Assembly (NCBI GenBank): GCA_017412765.1
Contig: JAFPWN010000015.1
Coordinates: 286 to 64,285, forward strand
Reading direction: 5' to 3'
Source: Oscillospiraceae bacterium
GTDB taxonomy: Bacteria > Bacillota > Clostridia > Oscillospirales > Oscillospiraceae
Length of the DNA: 64,000 nucleotides
Below are positions 1 through 12,778 of the stretch, one piece after another; within the stretch, counting starts at the first letter, position 1; each line of letters begins with the position of its first letter. The translations under genes and the position numbers were made by a program. The notes beneath the pieces were generated by a model. It was not told the DNA's origin. It was given only the letters and a program-made list of their open reading frames with translations, and searched no databases.

Positions 1-290
1 TTTTCTTTTGCTGAAACGACCTTTATGCCGTTCTTTTTCAGAATGTGCTTATAGTGAGCACTGTCATAACGGTCACGCGAGAAACGATCCAGTTCCCATA
101 CGAGCACGGTGTCGAACAGTCCCTTTTCACTGTCACGAATCATTCGCTGAAACTCCGGTCTATCTGCGGTACGCGCTGAGAGTGCGCGATCAATGTAGCT
201 TGATAGTATCGTATACCCTTCGCGCTGACTATCCGATGAATAACGTGCATAAATAACTGCTTTCGCTGCCTCACCACCTTGAATTTGATT
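1..290 (-). pseudogene. Serine recombinase (resolvase-type catalytic domain); N-terminal part only, leaves the window, probably decayed
   Basis: Minus frame 290->1 is open for 96 codons: NQIQGGEAAKAVIYARYSSDSQREGYTILSSYIDRALSARTADRPEFQRMIRDSEKGLFDTVLVWELDRFSRDRYDSAHYKHILKKNGIKVVSAKE. It carries YARxSSxxQ and LDRFSR resolvase-type motifs. An in-frame TAG lies at 291-293 with no ATG/GTG/TTG after it. The SSDSQ-to-YIDRA spacing looks about 20 aa shorter than I remember for the family. Absent from the ORF track because it has no start and no stop in the window. Confidence 0.6.
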
Positions 291-454: not shown

Positions 455-2623
455 TTATTTTTTCTTTCCCTTAAAAGTCCCGGATTCCTGCGGCTCCGAC
501 TGTTCTTTATACACGTTTTGAGACTCCCACGAGACGGTGACGCCGCCCTTGCCGTCAAAGACGATCGTGTAGACCGTGGAGATGTACTGAACGTCGTTCA
601 TATAACTCTTTTCCAGATAAGTGGCGGTTCTCGTTGCGGGATCGAAAGTGGCGTTCTCGACGGTGAGACGATCGTCATAGTACGATTTGAAAAAGCCCTC
701 TACGCCGTCCTCTTTGATTCGGTTCTTAACATCATCGGGATTCTTCGCCTGCACCAGATAATAGCAGCCGTTGTACTCAAACACGTAATAGCTGCGCTCA
801 CCCTGCTTCTGTTTGCCGCCGTCCCAGTACGCCGTGTAGTCATACGTACCGTAGTAGCCGCCGGTATAGCCGGTGTCGGCGGCAGGTTCCTCCGGCTTGG
901 AGTCGTCGGACTTATCGTCCGCTTTGCCGGTGTCTTTGGCAGGGTCGTAGCCCTCGACCCATTCGCCGTCCTTTTGTACCTGCACGCCGTCCTTCCAGAC
1001 GTTGCCGTTGCCGTCCGATTTCACGATCGTGCCGTCCGGACGGGTCAGATTCCAGCTGTCGTCTTCGGGGTTGCAAACGACCAATCCGCCGTTGGGATCG
1101 TAGTATTCCGACAATGCGCCGTCTTTGACAACGATCCGAAGCCCGTCTTTCGTTACGATGCTGCCCGACGGCTCTCCGTCTTCGTTCTCCTTGTAGCGCA
1201 GGACTGCGCCCGCCTGCTCGTTTGTGAAGACGCGCTCGCCTGTCTCGGCATCGATAAACATATCCAGTCCTGCGGTTTGGCTGTGAATCTTTTGAATCTC
1301 TCCGTCATACGTGGTGACCCAGGACTCAGAGCCGTCCTCTTTTTCAAAGGAAACGCCGTCGGCGGTGAAATCCATTTTGCCGCCGTCCTCATCGATCTGA
1401 TGGACGCCGTCCTTGTCGAACTCAATCGTGCTTCCGTCGGCGTTTTTGAACTTCTTGCCGTCCGTGGACTTCTCGTTGCCCTTTTTGTCGATGTATTTAT
1501 CGGTGCGTCCGGTCACGACGCCGTCGGTGCCGGTCACTTCGCTCTCGAGTTTCGAGCCGTCCTTATACGTGTGGACGCTCTTTACCGATTTCTTGCCGTC
1601 CTCGCCGTAGGTGACGGTATGTTCGCTCGTTGTGCCGTCCTTATTCTCGACGGTCACGTAGATATGATTGTCGTCATTTGTGGCGGTGGTGGTTTTGCCG
1701 TCCTCCGTCCACTTCGTATCAATGCCGTTTTTGACCACCGCGCCGTTTTTGTCAAAGACGATCGTCTGGCTGTTGTGGCCCTTCTCGTTGTCAATGATCG
1801 AGGCGGTGACGGTTTTATTGCCAAACGCGTCAGTCGTCTCGGTCTCTCGGTATTCGCCGTCCTTGCTCACAACGTGGAAATCAGAGCTGTCGTCGGTTTC
1901 AACGCGCGTCATGGACAGTCCGTCCGCGTCCTTTATATCAAGGGCCTCATTCCCGTCCCCGTCCCGCGTCCAGTTCACGCCGCCGAGGCGCTGACCGTTT
2001 TTGTCGGTGACGTTAAGGGAAAACTCCTTCATGTACTCGCCGTCGCCGTCTTTGTAGGGCTCATTTTCGAGGGTATAGGTGATCGTTCTGCCCGTCTTGT
2101 CGGTAACGGTCTGGGTGCCTGTCTTAGAATCGCCGTTTTCGTCATAAAACTCGATCTTGTTGTTTTCGTCTAAGGAAACGCCCGTCCATTTGCCGTCCTT
2201 GTCAAAGGTCATGGTCAGCCCCGTCTCGGCGTTGTATTCGGTGTGAGAGCCGTCGGCATGATAGATCTCGCTGGTGCCGTCCGGATAGTACCCCTCGCCG
2301 CTGCCGTCGGGTCGTTTGGTGCCGTAGCCGCCGTCGAGGGTTTGGAACTTGATCGTTCCGTCCTTGGACTCCTCAAAGTGGTTGCCGTCCTTATCCAGAC
2401 CCTCTTTTCTTCCGTCGGGGTAGGTGGTGCGCATACTGCCGTTTTCAAAAATCTCGGTTTTGGAGCCGTCCGCGCCCTCAAACACCTGCGCGTTGCCGGA
2501 GAAGAGATCTTCGTCACCGAACGACCAATCTCCGCCCTCGGCGGAAGCGACCGTAACCATCGGCACGGACGAAACGAACATTACAAGCGCAAGAAGCAGC
2601 GCAATCGTTTTCTTTTTCATCAT
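455..2623 (-). CDS. Secreted repeat protein (DG-rich beta-hairpin repeats, MORN/TCP10-G-box-like), function unknown
   Basis: 722-aa ORF. Signal peptide MMKKKTIALLLALVMFVSSVPMVTVASAEG. Dozens of short xDGxxxxY/T-type repeats (YPDGRKEGLDKDGNHFEESKDGTIKF...). ATGA overlap with the upstream gene. The 551-aa plus-strand ORF opposite is a shadow. Confidence 0.85.
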   Translation of the reverse strand: MMKKKTIALLLALVMFVSSVPMVTVASAEGGDWSFGDEDLFSGNAQVFEGADGSKTEIFENGSMRTTYPDGRKEGLDKDGNHFEESKDGTIKFQTLDGGYGTKRPDGSGEGYYPDGTSEIYHADGSHTEYNAETGLTMTFDKDGKWTGVSLDENNKIEFYDENGDSKTGTQTVTDKTGRTITYTLENEPYKDGDGEYMKEFSLNVTDKNGQRLGGVNWTRDGDGNEALDIKDADGLSMTRVETDDSSDFHVVSKDGEYRETETTDAFGNKTVTASIIDNEKGHNSQTIVFDKNGAVVKNGIDTKWTEDGKTTTATNDDNHIYVTVENKDGTTSEHTVTYGEDGKKSVKSVHTYKDGSKLESEVTGTDGVVTGRTDKYIDKKGNEKSTDGKKFKNADGSTIEFDKDGVHQIDEDGGKMDFTADGVSFEKEDGSESWVTTYDGEIQKIHSQTAGLDMFIDAETGERVFTNEQAGAVLRYKENEDGEPSGSIVTKDGLRIVVKDGALSEYYDPNGGLVVCNPEDDSWNLTRPDGTIVKSDGNGNVWKDGVQVQKDGEWVEGYDPAKDTGKADDKSDDSKPEEPAADTGYTGGYYGTYDYTAYWDGGKQKQGERSYYVFEYNGCYYLVQAKNPDDVKNRIKEDGVEGFFKSYYDDRLTVENATFDPATRTATYLEKSYMNDVQYISTVYTIVFDGKGGVTVSWESQNVYKEQSEPQESGTFKGKKK

Positions 2624-3018
2624 TGCGCATCACCCACGCTTTCGATTAGGTCTTCCCATTTGTTGAGATTCTGCATACCCGCAAAATATTTGCCGTAGGT
2701 GGTGTCGGCGATCCCCGCTTCGATATCCGCCACGGCGGCGCCCGCCACGGCTTTCTGAAGCTGCGCATAAACCTGCTGCGCCGCCTCGTAGTTGCCGGCT
2801 TCTTCCAGACGCTTGGCGTAATCGCTGAGCTCCTCGAACATAGTTTGCGCCGCCGCAGCTTCGTTGTCGCCGTTTTCCTCCAGCTTCTGGGCGTATTCGT
2901 ACAGGGATGTGTTGTCGGTTTGCATGTTGTTTTTCTTGTTGTCATCTTTCTTTGACCCGCAGGCACATAGCGCAAGCGACATAAGTACCGCAAGCATGAT
3001 TGAAATGATCTTTTTCAT
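2620..3018 (-). CDS. Small lipoprotein, function unknown
   Basis: Lipobox in MKKIISIMLAVLMSLALCACGSKKDD. Start moved to the ATG at 3016-3018, preceded by GGAGGAAAG. Helical A/E/Q-rich mature part. Stop overlaps the next start (ATGA). Confidence 0.75.
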   Translation of the reverse strand: MKKIISIMLAVLMSLALCACGSKKDDNKKNNMQTDNTSLYEYAQKLEENGDNEAAAAQTMFEELSDYAKRLEEAGNYEAAQQVYAQLQKAVAGAAVADIEAGIADTTYGKYFAGMQNLNKWEDLIESVGDAQ

Positions 3019-3061
3019 AAAGCTTTCCTCCCTTTTCAGTGATACGTCAGCAGACTGCATA

Positions 3062-3355
3062 CTACGGAAGAAGTACGCGGTCGACATTAAAAATCACGGT
3101 AATCGGCGTGTGGTTGTCAATGCTTATGCCGCGCAGCTCATAGTCCCGCAAGGCGCTTAAAAACTCATAATAGATGATGCAATCCTCATCGGTTTCCGTT
3201 ACGCTCTCGCCCCAGTGCTTGTGCTCGGTGTGGGTGGAGTCTACCCGGAACAGATCGCGGGAACCGTTTGCGGTGAAGGTGAGCGTAAGGTCATAGGTGC
3301 TGGGCTGAGAGCCGTATCTCGGGTGATCCGCATAAGAGGCGGTATAGGTCGTCAC
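3062..3355 (-). CDS. Hypothetical 97-aa protein, possibly the 3' remnant of a longer gene
   Basis: GTG start with no clear RBS. The frame stays open upstream to about 3406 (..RKTTRGEAFVIDLTAGAV-) without a start codon and then runs into AT-rich sequence. Ends in TAG, the only TAG-terminated ORF I kept. Confidence 0.4.
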   Translation of the reverse strand: MTTYTASYADHPRYGSQPSTYDLTLTFTANGSRDLFRVDSTHTEHKHWGESVTETDEDCIIYYEFLSALRDYELRGISIDNHTPITVIFNVDRVLLP

Positions 3356-3422
3356 AGCGCCCGCCGTCAGGTCGATGACAAATGCTTCGCCGCGTGTTGT
3401 TTTTCTTTATTAAAAAGTTTTT

Positions 3423-3710
3423 TTATTTATTCCGTGTTAACACAAAAGTGCCCTTTGAAGTAATCTCTAAACTATCTTTACTTATCAGGCGTAGTTTCAT
3501 ATCGTTATGCCACTTGCTGTTTGAAATAACCAATACATTCCCGTCAAAAGTGTATTCACAGGAAAATGTGACCGGATTGGATGTTGTTCCGTCTGCTTTT
3601 GAAGCAGTCATAACAACGGTGACGGTATCATTTGCCTGGCTGAACGTATAATTTTCCGTTATGCCTTCACTTGAATAAGACCATAATCCCATAATATCAT
3701 CAATCGTCAC
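3423..3710 (-). CDS. Hypothetical 95-aa protein (beta-rich, lipocalin-like feel)
   Basis: ORF MTIDDIMGLWSYSSEGITENYTFSQ... ATGA overlap with the upstream lipoprotein gene. Visibly AT-richer than its neighbours. Confidence 0.6.
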   Translation of the reverse strand: MTIDDIMGLWSYSSEGITENYTFSQANDTVTVVMTASKADGTTSNPVTFSCEYTFDGNVLVISNSKWHNDMKLRLISKDSLEITSKGTFVLTRNK

Positions 3711-5203
3711 GCCTGTCGCACCTGTACCGCCTTGCTGCTCGGTGTTACTGTTTGATGAATTATTTTTCCCGTATTGCTGTTTTCGGAAGCGCTTGTATCA
3801 GGCTCATTTTTACTGTTTCCTGAATTTTCCTCTTCGTATCCCATCTCGGCAATTTCATAAAGAACATTCTGCAGGAGCTTCAGATAAGCGTCAAGGTCAA
3901 AATCATCCTGCATGATCGGCTTTGTATTGTCGATAATCATTTGGCTGACCTCGGGGGTCATCGTATCCGTGCTCATTTTTACCGGCGCCGGGTCTGTTTC
4001 GCCGGATGCTGCCAGCGCCGAGTTGATCCTCTCTTCGGAAACGCCTGCGTTCTTTAAGACGTCCGTGACATTCTTCTGCTGATCGGGTTCGGTACCCGTG
4101 AGCGTGTTCATCAGCGTGAACTTGACGCCGTCGTCACCCTTTGTGAAGGTTCCGCTCATAATCGAGCCGCCGTTCACATAGTCATTGATTGCTCCTGCGC
4201 CGTACGAGATTACGCCGAAGGAATTCATAGCAAGTTCCTCTTTCGTTTTTGCGTCAAGCGAGTTATAACCGTTTTTCCATATATCTTTGCCCGCGCCTGC
4301 CAGATCCTTGATGTTTGCGCCCACGCCCGCGATGGCAAAGATCTGGCCGATCGGCGCGAGCTGTGCTTCCGTCTTGTCGCAAGCCATACTGAACTCGTTA
4401 TCCTCGCCGTTTGTATAGAGGATAGAAGCGGTTGAGCCGATTTCAAGGACTGTGTTGACACCGCTCATTGTAATACCGCCAGTGCTGACCGCCGTCGCCA
4501 ATGCGCCGCTTGCGGGTGCGGTTGCAACGGCGATCACCAAGCCCGCCGCTGTGCCCGCTGTTTTGAGAACGGTTGCGGTTTTAACAGCGGTATTTGCCTT
4601 ATCGGCAATCTGCGTGTATTCGGCGCCCATCAAAATATCCTGCGCCATCTCCATCTGTGCGTAGGCGTGCTTTGCATCCGTGCCGAGCTGTGAAGCGAGG
4701 TGCCTGATCGCATAGCCCGGCTTCGCCTTCGCATACTCGTCCATGATGGACTGCGCCCATTCCTTTGAACCCATTTCTGCGGCATACGCCGTTATACCGA
4801 GAGATGCTGCGGCACTAAGCTTCTGAACTTTCGGCCCTTCTCCGTTTTCCTCCTGTTCATAAACGTCAAGTGCTTCGTTCAGAACGGCATTCATTTTATC
4901 TGCATTCTCAAACGCCCTCACTGCGTTGTCAACAAGTGCGGCGTATTGGGCATAATTATCTTCTGTTAAACCTGAAACATCGTAGTTAATGAACGCATCA
5001 AGATAGGCTCTGCCGGCGAGATAGTAGTTTACAGCCAAGCCGGAAGCGGCGTCAACAACAGCCTCTGCGTCTGTCGGAACAGGGTAATTCACCTGTGCCT
5101 TCTCCGTTTTGCGGTTTTTATCCCCGCACCCGGCAAGGAGGGACAAGGTCATAACGGCAGCGATCAGAAGTGATGCAAACCGTTTTGCTTTTTTCATAAT
5201 CAT
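3707..5203 (-). CDS. Lipoprotein (about 496 aa), function unknown
   Basis: Lipobox MKKAKRFASLLIAAVMTLSLLAGCGDK. The likelier start is the ATG at 5195-5197, 8 nt after AAGGA. The central Ala/Gly/Thr-rich hydrophobic stretch (TAGTAAGLVIAVATAPASGALATAVSTGGI) may be membrane-inserting. G+C is lower than in the flanks. Confidence 0.8.
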   Translation of the reverse strand: MIMKKAKRFASLLIAAVMTLSLLAGCGDKNRKTEKAQVNYPVPTDAEAVVDAASGLAVNYYLAGRAYLDAFINYDVSGLTEDNYAQYAALVDNAVRAFENADKMNAVLNEALDVYEQEENGEGPKVQKLSAAASLGITAYAAEMGSKEWAQSIMDEYAKAKPGYAIRHLASQLGTDAKHAYAQMEMAQDILMGAEYTQIADKANTAVKTATVLKTAGTAAGLVIAVATAPASGALATAVSTGGITMSGVNTVLEIGSTASILYTNGEDNEFSMACDKTEAQLAPIGQIFAIAGVGANIKDLAGAGKDIWKNGYNSLDAKTKEELAMNSFGVISYGAGAINDYVNGGSIMSGTFTKGDDGVKFTLMNTLTGTEPDQQKNVTDVLKNAGVSEERINSALAASGETDPAPVKMSTDTMTPEVSQMIIDNTKPIMQDDFDLDAYLKLLQNVLYEIAEMGYEEENSGNSKNEPDTSASENSNTGKIIHQTVTPSSKAVQVRQA

Positions 5204-5216
5204 TTTCCTTTATCAA

Positions 5217-5352
5217 CTATTGTTTTATGTTGACACAACGGGAAGCAATGTAGTTCTTGACAAACTCAAAGTCCTCTTTTGCCGCATAAACCTGATTATG
5301 TTCGAGGCGTTCGTTCACCTTTATAAGATCCCGGCGGGGCTGCGCGTTTTTT
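5217..5352 (-). pseudogene. 3' fragment of a paralogue of the 7917-8534 membrane-protein gene
   Basis: The minus frame reads ..FRQTKNAQPRRDLIKVNERLEHNQVYAAKEDFEFVKNYIASRCVNIKQ*. It aligns with the C-terminus of the 7917-8534 product (..KVRKIKAYPRRHVIKVKETLEHNQIYASDEDFAFVQQYILSHCPNAKQ*) at about 27 of 42 positions. No start codon, and it begins inside the tail of the 843-aa gene. Confidence 0.7.
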
Positions 5353-5370
5353 GTTTGCCTAAACGGCCTT

Positions 5371-7902
5371 TCAGTTCCCCGCTTCGCGGTTGAAGCGCAG
5401 GTTCTGGGCTATTTCGTCCTTCGTGCCCGGATTGAGGATGAACCGGGCGGCGGGATACCCGGTCAGGGAATCCTTTTCCGGCACTCTCTCGATCCGCATG
5501 GGGTCGAGATCCGGTGTGTCCCCCGCTTTTCCGTACAGGTTGCCGTAGATGATCCCCGTTTCGGTTTTTTCGATCAGGATCGCGCCGGTCTTCGGATCGA
5601 CGGTGTATTTGCGTTCAAAGGCGTAATCCACCCCGGACCGCCAGTCGGGATGAGCGGGATCGGCGTAATAATAGGACTCGTAAAGGAGGGTCTCCCCGTC
5701 GATGATTGTGATCCTATTGGACTGGGTGCTGAATCCCGAAAACGCGCCGCCCTCTCCCTCGTACCTGGGATAGCTCCACGCGCCGTTCAGCCAGTCCGCG
5801 CCGGTAGAGGTATTGCCGAGCTCCACCGTCGTCTGGCGGTCGCCGTCCGTTTTGGCGGTAAAGTCCTTCACGGCGATCGGCGCCGCGCCGCTCTTGTAAT
5901 CCGATTCGTTCTTGTAAACCAGCACCTGGTTCGGCATCCCCATTTTCAGAAAGCCGAGCACGGTACATTCGTAGTCGACGTCCCAGCCGTCGTCGAAATC
6001 ACTGCCTTCCGGGACGTTCCAGTAAAGATCGGGAATCGGTTTGCCCTCGCTGCCGAAGCAGACCGTGCAGCCCTGGTATTTCGTGTTCTCGGTGCTCTGC
6101 TGATCGACGGACTCCTGTATCGTAAAACTGAGCGTCTTGTTGTAGGTCTCTGTCGCCTTTGTCAGCTCGGCAAGAGTCTTTTCCTGGAGGCGCTCGATCA
6201 GGAATCTCTGGATCTTCGTCATCGCTTCGGTCTCGATTAGGCGCCACACCTTCGCCTTCTGCTGTTCGGTGAGCGCCGCCTTCTGATCCGACGTTGCGTT
6301 GAAGAAAACGTTTTTGTATCCGGCGGAGGAAGCCGCGAACAGGATGTCCGCGTTCGTCTCGTCGTAGACCTCCTGCCAGAACTTCTCGCAGTACTCGTCC
6401 ACCGCTTTTTTGATCTCGCGCATGGCGGCATCCGCGTCTCCGTTGCTGTGCCAGTAGGCCTCCTCGAACACCCGGTACCAGTGATCACTGTCAAACGGCT
6501 CGACCTTGGTATAATAGGCGTTGAAGACCGCGCTGACGTTTTCGGCCTGCTCGATTTTCGCCGCGTCGACGAAATAGTCGATTTCCATGCCCATAAGCGC
6601 AACGCCGACGAAGGCGATCGTGAAGCCGACGTGGCTGTAGCCGGTCGTCAGAGAATAGATCGTGCCGCCGCTGCCGAGCATATTTTTGTAAAGATTATAG
6701 CCCGCCGTTTGCGTCCGGTCCTTGTCCGTGCTGTTCAGATCCATGCCAACCTGCACCGCCATGGCGAGGAAGGGGATCGCGTTCATGGCGTTGCCGAGCT
6801 CGCCGGAGTGGTCGATCATAAAACTGACCGCGCGGCTCTGCGAGGCGGGAGGCAGCGAGTCGATGCCGAGATTGATCATGGCGTCGCAGAACGTCCACAT
6901 GGTATTCGTTTCTGTGAACGCCTGATACGCGGCCTTCGCGTCCATATTGGGGTCGAGCGTCGGCATTTTGACCGCGTAGTTCTCCGGATCGTCGATAAAG
7001 GCGGTCACCTCGTCCGAAAACTCGGCCGGATTGGTGCGCTGCAGGATGTTCCAGTAGTTTGACACCACCGCAAGCGTGAGCAGATAGGGGTTATCCTCAT
7101 CCGCGACGACCTTGTAGAGCGAGGGGTTCGATCCGACCGGCCTGTACGTGACCCGCGCCGGAGAAAAACTACCGAAATACGCCGTCGCCGTGCCGGCTTC
7201 TTCGTTTACGAACGTGAGCAGCGGCATCCAATTCCCGTCTTTGTAGTGCTCGACGATAACGTCCGTGCCGGACTGGACGCGGCAGGGAAAGGTGACCGCT
7301 ACGGGAACGTAAAAATCTTCGTGCTTGCCCATCTCCAGCTCGTACGCCTCGTAGCGCGTTCCGTCCGCCTCCGTTCCGCTTTCGTAGACCGAGACGGACA
7401 CGTCGCGCTTGCCGGACTCCAGCATCAGTGTATCCACGTCGACCGTCACGCCGCAAAGTGTGATCGCCGGCGACTCCGCGCTGACGCTCCCCTTCTCCGA
7501 GGCCTGCACCTTTCCGAACTCGGGCTTCGGCTCCTTGCCGCCGCGGAACCAGCCGCCGTTCCGGAATCCGAAGATCCCGACAACGATCGCCGCCACGAGC
7601 AGAAGCGACACGGCGGCAAGCCCGCCCTTGCCCTTCTTTTTGGCGGCCGGTGCGGCGGACTGCTGATAGACGTACGCCTGCTGCTGCGCTCTCGCCGCGT
7701 TCCGCTGCGCGAACTGCTCCGGGATCCGCACCTGCGGCCGCGGAGTGTATGAGTGCGGCTGCGGATTCGCCTGCGGCTGCGGATTGGGAGAGCTCTTCGG
7801 CTGCTGCGGCTGCGCCGCCTGCGGGACGGGCGAACCGCAGGAGGAGCAGAATCTGACTCCCTCTCCGAGCGGGGATCCACAATTCTGACAAAACTTAGCC
7901 AA
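5371..7902 (-). CDS. Zinc-ribbon membrane-anchored protein with a large extracytoplasmic domain, function unknown
   Basis: 843 aa with a TTG start. N-terminus MAKFCQNCGSPLGEGVRFCSSCGSPV (CxxC..CxxC), then a P/Q-rich linker, one TM (LAAVSLLLVAAIVVGIFGF), then about 720 aa with no motif I recognise. Confidence 0.85.
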   Translation of the reverse strand: MAKFCQNCGSPLGEGVRFCSSCGSPVPQAAQPQQPKSSPNPQPQANPQPHSYTPRPQVRIPEQFAQRNAARAQQQAYVYQQSAAPAAKKKGKGGLAAVSLLLVAAIVVGIFGFRNGGWFRGGKEPKPEFGKVQASEKGSVSAESPAITLCGVTVDVDTLMLESGKRDVSVSVYESGTEADGTRYEAYELEMGKHEDFYVPVAVTFPCRVQSGTDVIVEHYKDGNWMPLLTFVNEEAGTATAYFGSFSPARVTYRPVGSNPSLYKVVADEDNPYLLTLAVVSNYWNILQRTNPAEFSDEVTAFIDDPENYAVKMPTLDPNMDAKAAYQAFTETNTMWTFCDAMINLGIDSLPPASQSRAVSFMIDHSGELGNAMNAIPFLAMAVQVGMDLNSTDKDRTQTAGYNLYKNMLGSGGTIYSLTTGYSHVGFTIAFVGVALMGMEIDYFVDAAKIEQAENVSAVFNAYYTKVEPFDSDHWYRVFEEAYWHSNGDADAAMREIKKAVDEYCEKFWQEVYDETNADILFAASSAGYKNVFFNATSDQKAALTEQQKAKVWRLIETEAMTKIQRFLIERLQEKTLAELTKATETYNKTLSFTIQESVDQQSTENTKYQGCTVCFGSEGKPIPDLYWNVPEGSDFDDGWDVDYECTVLGFLKMGMPNQVLVYKNESDYKSGAAPIAVKDFTAKTDGDRQTTVELGNTSTGADWLNGAWSYPRYEGEGGAFSGFSTQSNRITIIDGETLLYESYYYADPAHPDWRSGVDYAFERKYTVDPKTGAILIEKTETGIIYGNLYGKAGDTPDLDPMRIERVPEKDSLTGYPAARFILNPGTKDEIAQNLRFNREAGN

Positions 7903-7916
7903 ATCTCGTCGTTCCT

Positions 7917-8534
7917 TTACTGTTTGGCGTTGGGACAGTGCGAAAGGATATACTGCTGCACGAACGCAAAATCCTCGTCCGACGCGTAGATCTGGTTATG
8001 CTCCAGCGTTTCCTTTACCTTGATCACGTGGCGGCGGGGATACGCTTTAATTTTTCGGACTTTTGAAAAATCGGAATACATCTCCGTGCGTTGGGCGTTC
8101 ATTCCGGCGCCGACCGTTCCGATCCTGCCCGACGCCGCACCCGCAATCATCGTGGCACGAGCGAGCTTTTCCGCTTTTTTGGCCTGTGCCGCGATCTGTC
8201 TGTGGGTTATGCCTTTTTCGTCCATTTCAAACTCGACAATATATTTTCCGCCCATTATTGCGGCGTATAAAAGATACCCCAAACCTACAACGGCGGTCAT
8301 CCCCAAAAAGAAATATCCCAGAAACGGCAGGTTCTCCGCCGCCTTGTCCGCGCCCCAATTGGCCGCGTCGGAGATCAGCTCGACGGCGGACACGCCGAGA
8401 AACAGGAAGAAAAAGATCTTCCAGACCAGAACAAAGAATCTGAGGTCTTTGAACAGGTTGATCTCATAGACCCAGCGGTATTTTCCATCCTCGCAGAGAA
8501 TAACACGGGCGTTTAACGTTTCGCTTTCTTTCAT
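7917..8534 (-). CDS. Two-TM membrane protein, function unknown
   Basis: Start moved to the ATG at 8532-8534 (MKESETLN..), preceded by GAGG and lying after the upstream stop. Two hydrophobic helices and a cytoplasmic C-terminal domain. A C-terminal paralogue fragment lies at 5217-5352. Confidence 0.75.
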   Translation of the reverse strand: MKESETLNARVILCEDGKYRWVYEINLFKDLRFFVLVWKIFFFLFLGVSAVELISDAANWGADKAAENLPFLGYFFLGMTAVVGLGYLLYAAIMGGKYIVEFEMDEKGITHRQIAAQAKKAEKLARATMIAGAASGRIGTVGAGMNAQRTEMYSDFSKVRKIKAYPRRHVIKVKETLEHNQIYASDEDFAFVQQYILSHCPNAKQ

Positions 8535-8545
8535 ACGCCTCACCC

Positions 8546-9292
8546 TCACTTTAACAGCGGCAGACCGCATTTTTGGCATCGGTCGGATTCTATGGAATTT
8601 TTTGTACCGCAGCTTACGCAAGCGATATACGGAGCGCGGGATTTATCGTATAATTCATACGGGAAATGAAACTGCGGATGATATTTGAATCGGTCGCCCA
8701 CTTGCAGATAGTCCCACGCCCAGATCTGAGTTCCTTCCTGCTCGACGATTCTTTTTTTCTTGCCGTCGCTTGTGCGCACAACGGTTACGTACTCCGTCAC
8801 CATTTCCTGATCGTCGTTATTCTTGTGGCGGTAGGTAAGACCCGTTTTTTTGTCGATCACGGTCGCCTCATAAGTGTTCTTGGCGCGTTCTTTTACAAAA
8901 CCGTAAATTGCGAATAATAAAAATATCCCAGAGATGACGGCACCGTATTTCAGTGCGTCCGTAGTCTCCATTTTATCACTCACGATACTGTAAATGACAA
9001 AGCCGATCAGCGGCAACGGTACGAAAAACAGCGAAAAGATACCCGCCGCCTTGCGGTTTTTCTTGACCGCCGCAAGAATTTCGGGATGGTTTACCCTGTC
9101 GGAAAAGCCCGGCGCGGGAATGCCCTGCCTCACTGCGCCGTTTCCGGCCCAGGCAGGCGCCCCATATACAGGCGCGGTATATTGTGTTGCAATCTGCTGT
9201 GCCGGTGCGGGTGCGGCGTTTTGTGCCGCTCCACAGTTAGGACAGAATTTGGCGTTGTTTTCTATTTGCGCGCCGCAGTTTGAACAAAACAT
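8546..9292 (-). CDS. Double zinc-ribbon membrane protein (DUF2500-like beta domain)
   Basis: 248 aa. N-terminal MFCSNCGAQIENNAKFCPNCG, two TM helices, then a C-terminal CVSCGTKNSIESDRCQKCG. RBS AAGGAGG upstream. First gene of the minus-strand cluster. Confidence 0.85.
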   Translation of the reverse strand: MFCSNCGAQIENNAKFCPNCGAAQNAAPAPAQQIATQYTAPVYGAPAWAGNGAVRQGIPAPGFSDRVNHPEILAAVKKNRKAAGIFSLFFVPLPLIGFVIYSIVSDKMETTDALKYGAVISGIFLLFAIYGFVKERAKNTYEATVIDKKTGLTYRHKNNDDQEMVTEYVTVVRTSDGKKKRIVEQEGTQIWAWDYLQVGDRFKYHPQFHFPYELYDKSRAPYIACVSCGTKNSIESDRCQKCGLPLLK

Positions 9293-9332: not shown

Positions 9333-9362
9333 ATTATACTACTATAATAAGGATCGCCTCAA
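9333..9362 (-). promoter_or_regulatory. Candidate sigma-A promoter for the 9292->455 cluster
   Basis: The minus strand reads TTGAGG-N18-TATAAT (plus-strand CCTCAA at 9357-9362, ATTATA at 9333-9338), about 40 nt upstream of the ATG at 9292. Confidence 0.45.
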
Positions 9363-9465: not shown

Positions 9466-9726
9466 ATGTTCAGCGAAAGACTAAATAGAATACTCACTTT
9501 GCTCGATGTAACTTCGGGGGATTTTGCGCGCTTTACCGGATGCGATAAATCCTATATCAGCCGTATGACAAGCGGTGCGAGAGTCCCTAAAAAAGGCGGA
9601 GCGGGCGCTTAGCGTATCGTAGACGGCATATACGCCTCTGCCGATGAAAAGGGCAAAACCGCCGGGATCTGCGAGCTGATTTCCTGCTAAGATCAAAACT
9701 CCGCAGATGGGATAAAGTCACAGATC
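9466..9726 (+). pseudogene. Disabled first HTH module of the downstream regulator gene (in-frame TAG and TAA)
   Basis: ATG at 9466 with a good RBS (AGGAG, 8 nt), in frame with 9727. It reads MFSERLNRILTLLDVTSGDFARFTGCDKSYISRMTSGARVPKKGGAGA*RIVDGIYASADEKGKTAGICELISC*DQNSADGIKSQIMAWLYD. Stops at 9610-9612 (TAG) and 9688-9690 (TAA). Homologous to residues about 26-120 of the 515-aa product. Confidence 0.7.
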
Positions 9727-11274
9727 ATGGCTTGGCTCTACGACGGAGAAGAGGTTACGGATAAGAAATCCAAAGCACCGAAGGATAAAGTGCCATACCG
9801 TGTGTTTGGAGAAAAGCTGAACGCCGTTATGGAACTTGCGGAGATCTCCAACATTCGCCTTGGAAATCTGGTCAATATCGATACTTCTTACATAAGTCGA
9901 TTCCGAAACGGACTGCGATCCCCGAAATCCAACCCGCGCACTATGGACGCCATATGCACCGCTTTATTGCGCAGACTGGGAGAACAGAATAAAATAAAAC
10001 AACTTGCGGCTCTTTTGAAAGCTGACCACGACGCGCTGACGGACGAAGAAGAGGCGTTTTCGCTGTTTCACGACTGGCTGTACGATACCGAAAAGACCGA
10101 CAGCAGTTCGGTAATCGAAAAGCTGCTTGAAAGCATCGATACCTTTTCTATAAACACAAAAACGCCGCTGCCTTCTTTTGAGGAAGCAGCGGCAACATTC
10201 AAATGTGAAGACACTGTATATTTCGGCTCGACCGGCTTACAAAACGCGGTGATACGGTTTCTCGGGGGCGTGATTTCGGGCGGAGACAAAGAACTGTATT
10301 TATATTCCGACCAGAATATGAACTGGCTGACCGACCCTGAGTTTCGTCTGAAATGGGCGGTGCTGATGCTTTGCTGTGTGCAAAAAGGCGTCAAGATCCA
10401 CATCATTCATAACGTTGACCGCGACGTTTCCGAAATGATCGAGGCGATCATCAGCTGGCTGCCGCTCTATATGTCTGGAATGATCCGTTCTTATTACTGC
10501 AAAAAACAGAAGAACTCCCGGTTTTCCAATACGGTCTTTTTATGCCCGGGCGTCGCCTGCATCAAGGGCAGCAATGTGATCGGAACAGAAGATCAAAACG
10601 GCGAATATCGTTACGATACTGATACTAAACTATTGGAAATGCACCAAGCTGCTTTTCACAGTCTGCTCGCCGACGCAAAGCAGCTTGTGAGAATATACGG
10701 CAATCTTGAAAGCGAAGGGGTTATTCACACGGGCTATTCCGGAATGACTGTGCTCGGAACAGCGCTGTCATTTGCCACGATGCCAAAAGAGATGCTCGTT
10801 TCGATCCTTGAACGCTGCGGCGCTGACGAAACCGTGAAGAACAGGGCGTTTTCCGTTTGGGAAAGTCGAAAGAGATTACTCGACGATACGCTGAGCGGAT
10901 CATTCGTCCACGAGTGCATTCCCGTGGCGGATGAAGAAAGCCTGTTTGGAAATAAAGTCTTAACGGATATTCCCAGTCTAAATGTCGCATATACACCGAA
11001 GGAATATGCTGAACATATACGGAACATCATCGCGCTGTCGGATGAAAGCCCAAAATACCGTTTCTGCGCTTTGCCGGACGCGCCCTTTGCCAATACGCAG
11101 ATCGTACTTTTCGACGACCTCGTAACGGTAAGTAGGCTGAACACCCCGCAGGTCACGTTTTTGATTTCCCATCCGGCTATGTACGAAGCCTTTGTCGCTT
11201 ATGCCGACCGCATAACAGCCCGCTACAAACAGGATAAACTCACGACCAAAAGACTGCTGGAACGGTATTTGTAA
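9727..11274 (+). CDS. HTH-containing putative transcriptional regulator with a large C-terminal domain
   Basis: 515-aa ORF. HTH-like FGEKLNAVMELAEISNIRLGNLVNIDTSYISRFRNGLRSPK. No convincing RBS before 9727, so the true start is uncertain. Divergent from the zinc-ribbon cluster. Confidence 0.75.
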   Translation: MAWLYDGEEVTDKKSKAPKDKVPYRVFGEKLNAVMELAEISNIRLGNLVNIDTSYISRFRNGLRSPKSNPRTMDAICTALLRRLGEQNKIKQLAALLKADHDALTDEEEAFSLFHDWLYDTEKTDSSSVIEKLLESIDTFSINTKTPLPSFEEAAATFKCEDTVYFGSTGLQNAVIRFLGGVISGGDKELYLYSDQNMNWLTDPEFRLKWAVLMLCCVQKGVKIHIIHNVDRDVSEMIEAIISWLPLYMSGMIRSYYCKKQKNSRFSNTVFLCPGVACIKGSNVIGTEDQNGEYRYDTDTKLLEMHQAAFHSLLADAKQLVRIYGNLESEGVIHTGYSGMTVLGTALSFATMPKEMLVSILERCGADETVKNRAFSVWESRKRLLDDTLSGSFVHECIPVADEESLFGNKVLTDIPSLNVAYTPKEYAEHIRNIIALSDESPKYRFCALPDAPFANTQIVLFDDLVTVSRLNTPQVTFLISHPAMYEAFVAYADRITARYKQDKLTTKRLLERYL

Positions 11275-11925: not shown

Positions 11926-12219
11926 TTAGGTTTTAAGTACCCATTCCATTTGATTTTGTGCCTTGAGGTCTTCGGTAATTCCGTCGGCTGCGGCGTATTC
12001 CTTTATCAGCCTGTCGAACAGCTCGTTTGCCGCTCTGTCAGTTTCCTCTAGGTGAGCGTTTAGAGTGCCGCCGAGAAACATTCCGGTGTAAATTGGATTT
12101 CTGTTCTTCCGCAGGAACTCTTTTCTTCGTCTGCCCCAAACTCCGATGTTCGGCTCTTTCGGCGCTGTAAGGTCAGGAATGAGATAGTCTCCCCCGTGGT
12201 GGTATGTGATTTCTGCCAT
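11926..12219 (-). pseudogene. tnpV: Truncated TnpV-family transposon protein
   Basis: MAEITYHHGGDYLIPDLTAPKEPNIGVWGRRRKEFLRKNRNPIYTGMFLGGTLNAHLEETDRAANELF..QMEWVLKT*. The TnpV N-terminal signature (ITYxxxGDYLIPxL) is recognised from memory. It ends about 20-25 aa short of the usual C-terminus, exactly where it meets the converging sigma-like remnant. Confidence 0.6.
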
Positions 12220-12285
12220 TTTGATGCCCTCATTTTAGGTTGTAGGCTCATCATAGCAGAAAAAGATAGAAATGACGAATGTGCG

Positions 12286-12324
12286 AAAAAAGCCCGAAGA
12301 TTGCATCTCTGCAACCTTCGGGCT
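12286..12324 (-). terminator. Rho-independent terminator-like hairpin (minus direction)
   Basis: AAAAA-AGCCCGAAGaTTGCAtctctTGCAAcCTTCGGGCT. The A-run on the plus side becomes a U-run for minus-strand transcripts coming from the tRNA/repeat side. Confidence 0.5.
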
Positions 12325-12409
12325 GAAACTAAATATTCTCTAAATCTTCCAGATAAGCAAGAAATCCGAACGCTGCTCCGATCGGAACAAAGTTCGGATT
12401 TCTATGCTT

Positions 12410-12701
12410 TGGTGGAGACTGACAGGCTCGAACTGTCGAAGCCGACGCTTGTGCGTCTGCTTCTCTTTTCCGCTTTGCTCAATTTGAGGTCGACAACGTT
12501 CGAGCCTCGCACTTTTTCGCAACAAAAAAGCACCCCCGACGGGGTGCTTTTTTGTTGGTGGAGACTGACAGGCTCGAACTGTCGAAGCCGACGCTTGTGC
12601 GTCTGCTTCCCTTTTCCGCTTTGCTCAATTTGAGGTCGACAACGTTCGAGCCTCGCACTTTTTCGCAGCAAAAAAGCACCCCCGACGGGGTGCTTTTTTG
12701 T
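12410..12701 (-). repeat. Two tandem 146-bp direct repeats, each starting with the last 30 nt of tRNA-Val (att-site-like scars)
   Basis: Units 12410-12555 and 12556-12701 differ at 2 positions. Each begins (plus strand) TGGTGGAGACTGACAGGCTCGAACTGTCGA, identical to 12702-12731 inside the intact tRNA-Val. Each ends with the hairpin AAAAAAGCACCCCCGACGGGGTGCTTTTTT. The period of 146 continues into the tRNA. Confidence 0.9.
12670..12699 (-). terminator. Bidirectional rho-independent terminator just downstream of tRNA-Val (copy also at 12524-12553)
   Basis: A6-GCACCCC-cgac-GGGGTGC-T6, 3 nt after the tRNA-Val CCA end. Confidence 0.8.
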
Positions 12702-12778
12702 TGGTGGAGACTGACAGGCTCGAACTGTCGACCTCACGCGTGTGAGGCGTGCGCTCTAACCAGCTGAGCTAAGCCTCC
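12702..12778 (-). tRNA. tRNA-Val (anticodon CAC)
   Basis: Reverse complement GGAGGCTTAGCTCAGCTGGTTAGAGCGCACGCCTCACACGCGTGAGGTCGACAGTTCGAGCCTGTCAGTCTCCACCA. The cloverleaf folds by hand, with anticodon loop CTCACAC and an encoded CCA. Confidence 0.93.

Follow-up and report, generated by a model that had tools for sequence, protein, structure and literature searches.

Our analysis of a 64,000-nucleotide stretch of contig JAFPWN010000015.1 from an Oscillospiraceae bacterium (assembly GCA_017412765.1), hereafter the window, suggests with a probability of roughly 0.55 that the minus-strand gene cluster near its left end is a recombination-built, strain-variable island of envelope proteins. In this interpretation, a conserved core, formed by a regulator (R) and two membrane proteins (G1 and G2), carries swappable cassettes of exported proteins behind it, and the island is partly decayed in this genome. 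The modular structure itself is directly visible when the window is aligned to relatives at 90-96% DNA identity, and the most likely function of the locus is variable cell-envelope display. Throughout, G1 to G8 designate the eight minus-strand open reading frames (ORFs), R the divergent regulator, L-numbers the loci compared and P-numbers the homologous proteins. The locus is composed as follows:

Positions 9466-11274, plus strand: R, divergent regulator, a protein of 602 amino acids (aa) with two tandem helix-turn-helix (HTH) modules in relatives.
Positions 9333-9362, minus strand: sigma-70-like promoter candidate upstream of G1, TTGAGG-18-TATAAT, with 10/12 matches in a consensus scan.
Positions 8546-9292, minus strand: G1, 248 aa, conserved core; N-terminal zinc ribbon, two transmembrane (TM) helices, a small beta-rich domain predicted to be cytoplasmic and a C-terminal zinc ribbon.
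Positions 7917-8534, minus strand: G2, 205 aa from the ATG at 8534 (frame open to 8621), the most widespread core member.
Positions 5371-7902, minus strand: G3, 843 aa, cargo cassette 1; zinc ribbon, P/Q-rich linker, one TM helix and a large ectodomain.
Positions 5220-5348, minus strand: G2 remnant, the last ~42 codons of its former 3' end.
Positions 3423-5203, minus strand: G4/5, one split lipoprotein gene (ORFs 3707-5203 and 3423-3710), cargo cassette 2.
Positions 3062-3355, minus strand: G6, the last 97 codons of a truncated gene for a ~655-aa protein with aspartate-glycine (DG) repeats.
Positions 2620-3018, minus strand: G7, small lipoprotein starting MKKIISIML (ORF open to 3087), with a helical-hairpin domain and a less canonical lipobox, ALCAC.
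Positions 455-2623, minus strand: G8, 722 aa, cargo cassette 3 together with G7; signal peptide, ~40 nine-residue DG repeats, a globular C-terminal domain and no anchor.

The relatives of this locus carry different selections of the same parts. In L022-L024 and L030, R-G1-G2 is followed by G4/5, then by a 217-aa protein with a zinc ribbon and a TM helix (ZnR-TM) and a 542-aa DG-repeat protein; G3 is absent between G2 and G4, and is an insertion in the window relative to these closest relatives. L028 and L033 have the order G1-G2-G3, and their homology to the window stops at 5329. In L032, R-G1-G2 precedes a 101-aa G7-like lipoprotein and a 513-aa DG-repeat protein. L025-L027, an unrelated context, contain genes for proteins of 113, 655, 112 and 715 aa, the last three of which correspond to the parent of G6, to G7 and to G8. 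Along the window, the homology blocks switch at ~7960, 5329-5348, 3383-3394 and 1021: homology to L024 ends at the first of these joints, and at the second the L033-type sequence stops and the L024-type starts at 5348. Because the homology blocks change at these breakpoints, G8 is chimeric, and the GC content of the ORFs ranges from 38% (G5) to 60% (G3) in a genome of 54.7%, we conclude that recombination, both inside G2 and from cassette to cassette, has stacked three cargo alleles behind a single core in the window.

The last ~43 nucleotides (nt) of G2 (7917-7959) derive from a G3-bearing allele, and the former tail of G2 is stranded at 5220-5348 because a G2-G3 allele was joined to a G4/5 allele. 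This tail accounts for the gene fragment previously noticed in the 167-nt stretch between G3 and G4, since it is 64% identical to G2 residues 193-234 (tblastn) and 95.7% identical at the nucleotide level to the 3' end of the L024 G2 gene. G6 is 75% identical to the C-terminus of the 655-aa gene product of L025-L027 and also matches the end of P0096, the two parental types (P0096 and L025) being DG-repeat proteins of 651-655 aa. Its DNA homology to L025 spans 3064-3382 only, and L024-type sequence resumes at 3395; because the L025 homology ends at 3382, G6 is the stranded 3' end of a truncated gene. In G8, the last 570 nt (bases 449-1021) are 95% identical to the 542-aa DG-repeat gene of L024, and the rest (1022-2623) has as its best match found L025, at ~79% nucleotide identity in an alignment (455-2850) that includes G7. 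Finally, the linker and C-terminal domain of the 513-aa DG-repeat protein of L032 (L032:9632-11475) correspond to the G5 domain, with 89% identity, a clear case of one C-terminal cassette moving between unrelated bodies at the same locus. We also considered homology among the C-terminal domains of G3, G5, G6 and G8, and rejected it at the sequence level.

The preliminary description of this DNA had read the cluster as eight co-directional genes. All eight ORFs are present in a six-frame list, on the minus strand between 9292 and 455 and at the coordinates given there, but the gene count was too high: G4 and G5 form one frameshifted gene, and G6 is a 3' remnant, with two of the eight ORFs being pseudogene pieces. 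The junctions had been described correctly, with ATGA overlaps located at 3707-3710 and 2620-2623, gaps of 11 nt from G1 to G2, 14 nt from G2 to G3 and 43 nt from G6 to G7 (from their respective starts at ATG 8534 for G2 and MKKIISIML for G7), and larger gaps of 67 nt at 3356-3422 and 167 nt at 5204-5370. The promoter proposed at about 9333-9362 is likewise present as a candidate, reading from 9362 to 9333, and no intrinsic terminator inside the cluster stood out above chance. We rejected an invertible promoter or a shufflon, as inverted repeats flank neither the promoter nor the cassettes.

The frameshift in G4/5 is a loss of 1 nt, with a run of five A residues at 3763-3767 where L024 has six, and is the sole coding-region indel in the alignment. 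In the relatives P0047 and P0051 the gene encodes a single 591-aa protein, identical or near-identical across G4 and G5. The frameshifted 496-aa product of G4 has been recorded from 10 contigs, which makes a genuine allele more probable than an assembly error. R is also damaged. It had been noted as divergent from the cluster, which it is, but it is not intact: its first HTH module (9466-9726) is broken by TAG (~9610) and TAA (~9688) codons in the alignment to L024, and a 515-aa ORF remains from the ATG at 9727. The 602-aa protein is intact in L024 and L032. R homologues lie divergent from G1-G2 or G2 in L024, L032, L037, L042, L048, L055 and L063, and R-like genes are divergent in 6 of the 80 best G2 loci (see below). 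R has only a weak, HTH-level match to RmrA (PADLOC; E = 6.5e-4). A search of the window's own genome found no paralogues of the eight cluster genes and two of R. One of the latter (contig C12:28000-36995) is 55% identical, encodes 604 aa with an intact double HTH and is divergent from a gene for a 2346-aa secreted protein, which suggests that this regulator family generally adjoins large exported proteins.

The core proteins G1 and G2 are most probably not displayed outward, as their earlier description as envelope proteins might imply. Both are predicted to be two-helix hairpins, with both termini and nearly all of their mass, ribbons included, on the cytoplasmic side, because zinc ribbons are cytoplasmic and the number of helices is even. 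G1 has two stretches matching PF13240 (Pfam; E = 7e-13, 48.3 bits for a cut-off of 25) and G3 matches it too (E = 2e-7, 31.3 bits), both above the gathering threshold, so that the zinc ribbons reported earlier for these two proteins are secure. The Cys pairs at both ends of G1 are invariant in an alignment of 13 sequences, and its central domain has no match in PDB or Pfam. G2 consists of a DGKYRW motif, two TM helices and a cytoplasmic domain of ~110 aa, and residues D16, G17, Y19, R20 and W21 and an FEMDE block are invariant in 56 aligned sequences. Apart from a zinc ribbon, fused in 22-23 of these 56 members, G2 has no match in Pfam, PDB, PHROG or PADLOC, and scanning the 56 relatives singly contributed no further match.

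None of the products belongs to a recognizable catalytic family, as had been reported, and their assignment to uncharacterised membrane-anchored or exported families holds. Scans of all products with Pfam, NCBIfam, PHROGs and PADLOC returned only zinc ribbons, matches at the level of signal peptides and a sub-threshold Tcp10_C hit, and no PADLOC defence-system model matched G1-G8. Profile searches with alignments of G1, G2, G3, G4 and the 602-aa regulator against PDB sequences found nothing beyond ribbons, and a literature search on this gene combination turned up nothing relevant. For the ectodomains of G1-G4, neither a family nor a solved fold was matched. The AlphaFold2 (AF2) model of G3, with a mean predicted local distance difference test score (pLDDT) of 69, divides the ectodomain into a beta-sandwich (residues 130-280), a helical domain (283-588) and two further beta domains (590-695 and 705-840), the latter of which is C-terminal and variable. 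The beta-sandwich is well predicted; the helical domain is moderately so, and a hydrophobic stretch within it (394-448) is unmodelled. Homologues of the G3 ectodomain fall into 45 clusters (47-93% identity), all unnamed, most of which align only to about residue 700 and diverge beyond; the ectodomain was not found in 40 related genomes. Homology between the ectodomains of G3 and G4 was rejected, since hhalign pairs only the zinc ribbon.

Structure comparison, which had been suggested as a way to place these proteins, was run on G3 and G4/5. No match for G3 was obtained at E<=0.001 in PDB or BFVD (Foldseek). G4/5 consists of a helical, Ala/Gly-rich body and, in the G5 ORF, a predicted C-terminal barrel that may be lipocalin-like; its model is poor overall (pLDDT 49), with the barrel at ~85. 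The barrel is placed with lipocalins and fatty-acid-binding proteins (FABPs) at probability 1.0 and template modelling scores of 0.38-0.45, but with E-values of 0.02-0.1 and identities of 11-16%; Pfam has no lipocalin match for G4/5. Relatives of the G4 body comprise 350 representatives at 50% clustering in an exhaustive profile search, and are held by a lipobox (LLAGC in G4 itself), a zinc ribbon with a TM helix, SLH domains (P0081-P0084), or a dockerin with Big_2 (P0217). That these anchors are interchangeable speaks strongly for a G4 body acting beyond the cytoplasmic membrane. In P0217 the dockerin and Big_2 domains lie ahead of the G4-like body, with MORN-like repeats behind it. In the 985-aa protein P0102, a lipobox, a G4 helical body, G-box-like DG repeats and a C-terminal beta domain are fused, an arrangement which, as far as sequence can tell, links the G4 and G8 types functionally.

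The characterization of G4 and G7 as lipoproteins and of G8 as a secreted DG-repeat protein stands, the two lipoboxes, the G8 signal peptide and the repeats all having been found. DG spacing in G8 is mostly 8-10 residues, and residues 41-145 align to the CPAP/TCP10 G-box in PDB (phmmer; 4bxq, E = 3.3e-6; 4bxp, 1.1e-5; 4ld1, 1.7e-5); the match to Pfam Tcp10_C (PF07202) reaches 20.1 bits (E = 5e-4), under the gathering score of 36. The CPAP G-box is a short domain of centrioles, hence intracellular, and folds as one solvent-exposed layer of antiparallel beta-sheet. Because the repeats align to these structures, the analogy implies that G8 would form a long single-layer beta-sheet rod. The stop codon of G7 and the start codon of G8 share a 4-nt ATGA, and this pairing of a small anchored protein with a DG-repeat protein through overlapping stop and start recurs in L022, L025 and L032. 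In L025-L027 the gene immediately preceding the G8 homologue encodes a 112-aa protein to which G7 is 58% identical, and the helical motif of G7 recurs in the ZnR-TM protein of 217 aa preceding the DG-repeat protein in L022-L024 and in the 101-aa lipoprotein at the same place in L032. A ZnR-TM protein also adjoins a DG-repeat protein in L029, L043 and L051.

Among species-representative genomes, 365 encode G2 relatives; the best 80 of these 365 loci were compared further, with habitats taken from record titles. These 80 (43-87% identity) come almost entirely from metagenome-assembled genomes of the ruminant gut, plus one Actinomycetes, and are labelled Clostridia, Lachnospiraceae, Ruminococcus, Prevotella, Bacteroidaceae and Muribaculaceae. 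Within the genus, G2 is sporadic (4/38 genomes), as befits the cargo-like accessory stretch that had been proposed here and around which a 90-bp repeat and truncated mobility genes are found. G1 lies directly upstream of G2 at full length in 16 of the 80 loci and is cut by a contig end in 3 more (19/80). The gene after G2 is highly variable, being G3, G4, a ZnR-TM gene with a DG-repeat gene, or other lipoprotein genes; G4 follows directly in L030, L048, L081 and L085, and after an intervening lipoprotein gene in L075. When this gene is co-directional, its product looks exported in 26/55 cases, compared to 128/723 (18%) in the background, as judged by a crude predictor and over loci that are related to each other, which overstates the p-value of the difference. 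G3 has a G2 relative next to it, in either order, in four of six distinct contexts. Co-occurrence had been put forward as the test of the cluster: the full eight-gene set is absent from all of the more than 100 loci examined, but G1-G2, G2-G3, G2-G4, a G7-type gene with a DG-repeat gene, and R divergent from G1-G2 do recur. The 248/205/843-aa trio in particular exists elsewhere as G1-G2-G3 (L028 and L033), but not in the relatives that carry R-G1-G2-G4/5 without G3.

Some members of the G2 family lie in other surroundings. We rejected the idea that G2 comes from a phage or a plasmid. Neither IMG/VR viral contigs nor GenBank phages yielded a relative of it, PHROG matches of the cluster are confined to the ribbon and signal peptide, and the sole PLSDB match of G2 is a 2.6-Mb replicon of the cultured strain Acetoanaerobium noterae DSL2, filed there as a plasmid. 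This locus (L108; NZ_CP154629.1 1706301-1706873) encodes a 245-aa G2 homologue with 40% identity and a zinc ribbon of its own; next come genes for a 142-aa TM protein and for a 366-aa protein whose C-terminus holds a zinc ribbon. In L018 (5552-6769) a G3-G2 pair borders a different mobile or defence island, lying just past its T5orf172 gene, Eco57I-like methylase and phage-type integrase.

If the island works as we propose, R would control one leftward transcript from about 9333-9362, and the cargo proteins would pass through Sec and stay attached to the outside of the cytoplasmic membrane, each by its own anchor. The anchorless G8 rod would be tethered by G7, and the variable C-terminal beta domains may be the ligand-contacting ends. 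G1 and G2 would act from the cytoplasmic side as a common membrane partner of the different cargoes, possibly via their zinc ribbons, and the pay-off would be strain-specific envelope or surface properties in the rumen. Here we infer that the cluster is an operon, that G7 tethers G8, what G1-G2 do and that the C-termini bind ligands.

Several observations weigh against this island of core and swappable cassettes. G2 occurs mostly without G1, G3, G4 or G8 (~60/80 loci), and core and cargo may therefore be linked only loosely or by position. Two contexts have a G3 homologue standing alone, among them that of P0002, which is 84% identical and the closest homologue whose neighbourhood was examined, and which lies among housekeeping genes (P0001, 93% identical, is on a 3.4-kb contig and was outside the neighbourhood comparison). 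In Bacteroidota-like contexts, a TM-anchored ectodomain would be periplasmic, which fits an envelope role over outward display. The AF2 model of G3 is only moderate, with no Foldseek match, and that of the G4 body is poor. Lastly, the damage to R and G4/5 may mean that the locus is no longer used in this strain.

A bolder form of the same idea, which we put forward tentatively, would make R-G1-G2 a docking core for swappable surface cassettes, in a hitherto undescribed, recombination-driven surface-variation locus of rumen Clostridia. Within the ruminant gut, G2 would have passed from phylum to phylum, in some cases together with G3, and the cytoplasmic zinc ribbons of G1, G2, G3 and the ZnR-TM anchors would join the exported proteins in one membrane complex.

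It is also conceivable, but in our view doubtful, that G1-G2-G3 is an envelope maintenance or sensing module at the outer face of the cytoplasmic membrane, directed for instance at the wall or at membrane stress, and that the other cassettes are unrelated neighbours. In the Bacteroidota-like contexts of L016, L017, L020 and L021, G3 homologues lie 15-96 nt after a murF-alr fusion gene and are followed by G2-like genes and by genes for a GH20 hexosaminidase and SGNH/GDSL hydrolases; the retention of an HTH regulator beside G1-G2 and the resemblance of the zinc-ribbon/TM/ectodomain layout to membrane-spanning sensors point in the same direction. However, the link to wall genes comes from this one conserved neighbourhood, the other contexts of G3 being rpsO-pnp, aromatic amino-acid genes and a phage-integrase island. 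Moreover, no wall-binding or catalytic domain was found, and G2 and G3 behave as sporadic accessory genes and not as core genes.

The swapping of C-termini raises the question of whether this is an antagonism locus of the polymorphic-toxin or bacteriocin type, with G3, G4/5 and G8 delivered and bearing swappable C-terminal effectors, G2 and G7 providing immunity and G6 left as an orphan module. In the G3, G4 and DG-repeat families, the last ~100-140 aa do vary and are swapped between bodies, G6 is an orphan C-terminal fragment, small membrane protein and lipoprotein genes are adjacent, and G3 and G4 have hydrophobic helical stretches within otherwise soluble helical domains. We nonetheless consider this unlikely, as Pfam, NCBIfam and PADLOC recognize no toxin or immunity family here, and the one C-terminal domain that could be modelled resembles a lipocalin-like barrel, not a known toxin fold. 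The alpha-pore-forming toxins SmhB and AhlB appear only at Foldseek probabilities of 0.08-0.16, on the model with pLDDT 49. G3 and many G4 relatives are permanently anchored, by a TM helix, lipid, SLH or dockerin; no small gene follows G8 or G3, and G2 pairs with unrelated cargo or, often, with none.

That the locus is mostly inactive debris, made of recombined cassettes between mobile-element scars, seems improbable to us. One frameshift, two nonsense codons in R, two truncated genes and three truncated mobile-element genes within ~12 kb, bracketed by 90-bp direct repeats, are what such a history would leave. Yet the ORFs of G1, G2, G3, G7 and G8 are still long and unbroken, with identities of 73-95% to relatives, the 496-aa G4 allele persists on 10 contigs and a 515-aa ORF remains of R. 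As for one coherent eight-component envelope or surface machine, the idea with which the analysis of this cluster began, it is very improbable: the genes are co-directional and tightly spaced behind a single good promoter-like site, with no above-chance internal terminator and with all products membrane-bound or exported, but none of the other loci has the full set, two components are pseudogene pieces, and close relatives lack G3, G4 or G7-G8.

The mobile-element debris described on both sides of the cluster is indeed there, and the flanking features are the following:

Positions 1-290, minus strand: truncated serine recombinase downstream of G8, resolvase catalytic domain only, with YARYSSDSQ...DRFSRD motifs, its frame lost at the 90-bp repeat.
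Positions 11926-12219, minus strand: truncated TnpV gene (PF14198, E = 6e-30), adjoining the right 90-bp repeat and tRNA-Val att-like repeats.
Positions 12249-12338, no strand assigned: right copy of a perfect 90-bp direct repeat (90/90 identical by blastn).

The window begins 285 bases from the end of its contig (C73, in an assembly of 2.28 Mb and 74 contigs), and the left copy of the repeat lies just outside it, at C73:165-254, the pair thus bracketing ~12.3 kb with the whole cluster. The repeat contains a GC hairpin; its left copy abuts the frame break of the recombinase and its right copy the TnpV fragment, beside which a further truncated ORF lies beyond R. Close relatives have the core and cargo in other contexts without these mobility genes, and because of this the link between cluster and element is circumstantial. 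Further out, positions 12409-12731 hold two 146-bp tandem units, each repeating the 3' 31 nt of tRNA-Val and a terminator hairpin. At the other end, C73:1-164 is a multi-copy sequence also present at the ends of contigs C23, C11 and C13 (97-99% identity), and is probably what broke the assembly.

Most rumen Clostridia have not been cultured, and much of their exported protein repertoire lacks annotation. What is new in this locus is its cassette-type architecture, together with four families still lacking a name, those of G1, of G2, of the ectodomain of G3 and of the body of G4, for which the travelling combinations are now mapped; it is not a new system, and as a candidate for a new machine the cluster is weak. 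The comparison turns the G4 body into an extracellular module hung on four different anchors, pairs the predicted G-box-like DG-repeat rods with a small anchored partner, and leaves G7-G8 and G2-G3 as concrete pairs. It also corrects the genome annotation by reducing two genes to fragments, placing a frameshift in one gene and identifying damage in the regulator. Should the core-plus-cassette reading be true, the locus would be a simple case of strain-level surface variation in a gut ecosystem.

The likenesses of the island to known systems are all partial. G8 shares with the CPAP/TCP10 G-box (PF07202; 4bxq, 4bxp and 4ld1) a period of ~9 residues, xxYPDGxxx, over residues ~41-145 and continuing to ~555; it differs in being secreted and bacterial, in its ~40 repeats and globular C-terminal domain, and in a Pfam score below gathering. 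G1, G3 and many relatives of G2 and G4 resemble the zinc-ribbon and double zinc-ribbon membrane proteins of Bacillota (PF13240 and PF12773) in having an N-terminal CxxC-x(n)-CxxC ribbon with a linker and a TM helix behind it, but these families cover only the ribbon of ~23 residues and the rest of G1-G4 has no family; we know of no protein with this layout that has a demonstrated function. The G5 domain of G4/5 is placed by Foldseek among the lipocalin/calycin barrels, albeit with weak E-values, and the equivalent domains of G3, G8 and G6 are unrelated to it in sequence. With polymorphic toxin loci (Rhs/YD, CdiA and LXG) the island has in common large or repeat-rich bodies, variable C-termini, one cassette found on two bodies and the stranded G6, and it differs in its anchors, its predicted binding-type barrel and the lack of any recognized toxin, immunity or delivery domain. 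The truncated serine recombinase and TnpV gene in its flanks, the 90-bp repeat and the stacked tRNA-Val 3'-end repeats recall Tn4451-type elements and tRNA-linked islands, except that both mobility genes are broken and the cluster is not demonstrably their cargo. Finally, while Pfam finds no SLH, dockerin, cohesin, LPXTG or carbohydrate-binding module in the proteins of the window, distant relatives of G4 carry SLH domains or a dockerin with Big_2, as do the surface proteins of fibrolytic Clostridia.

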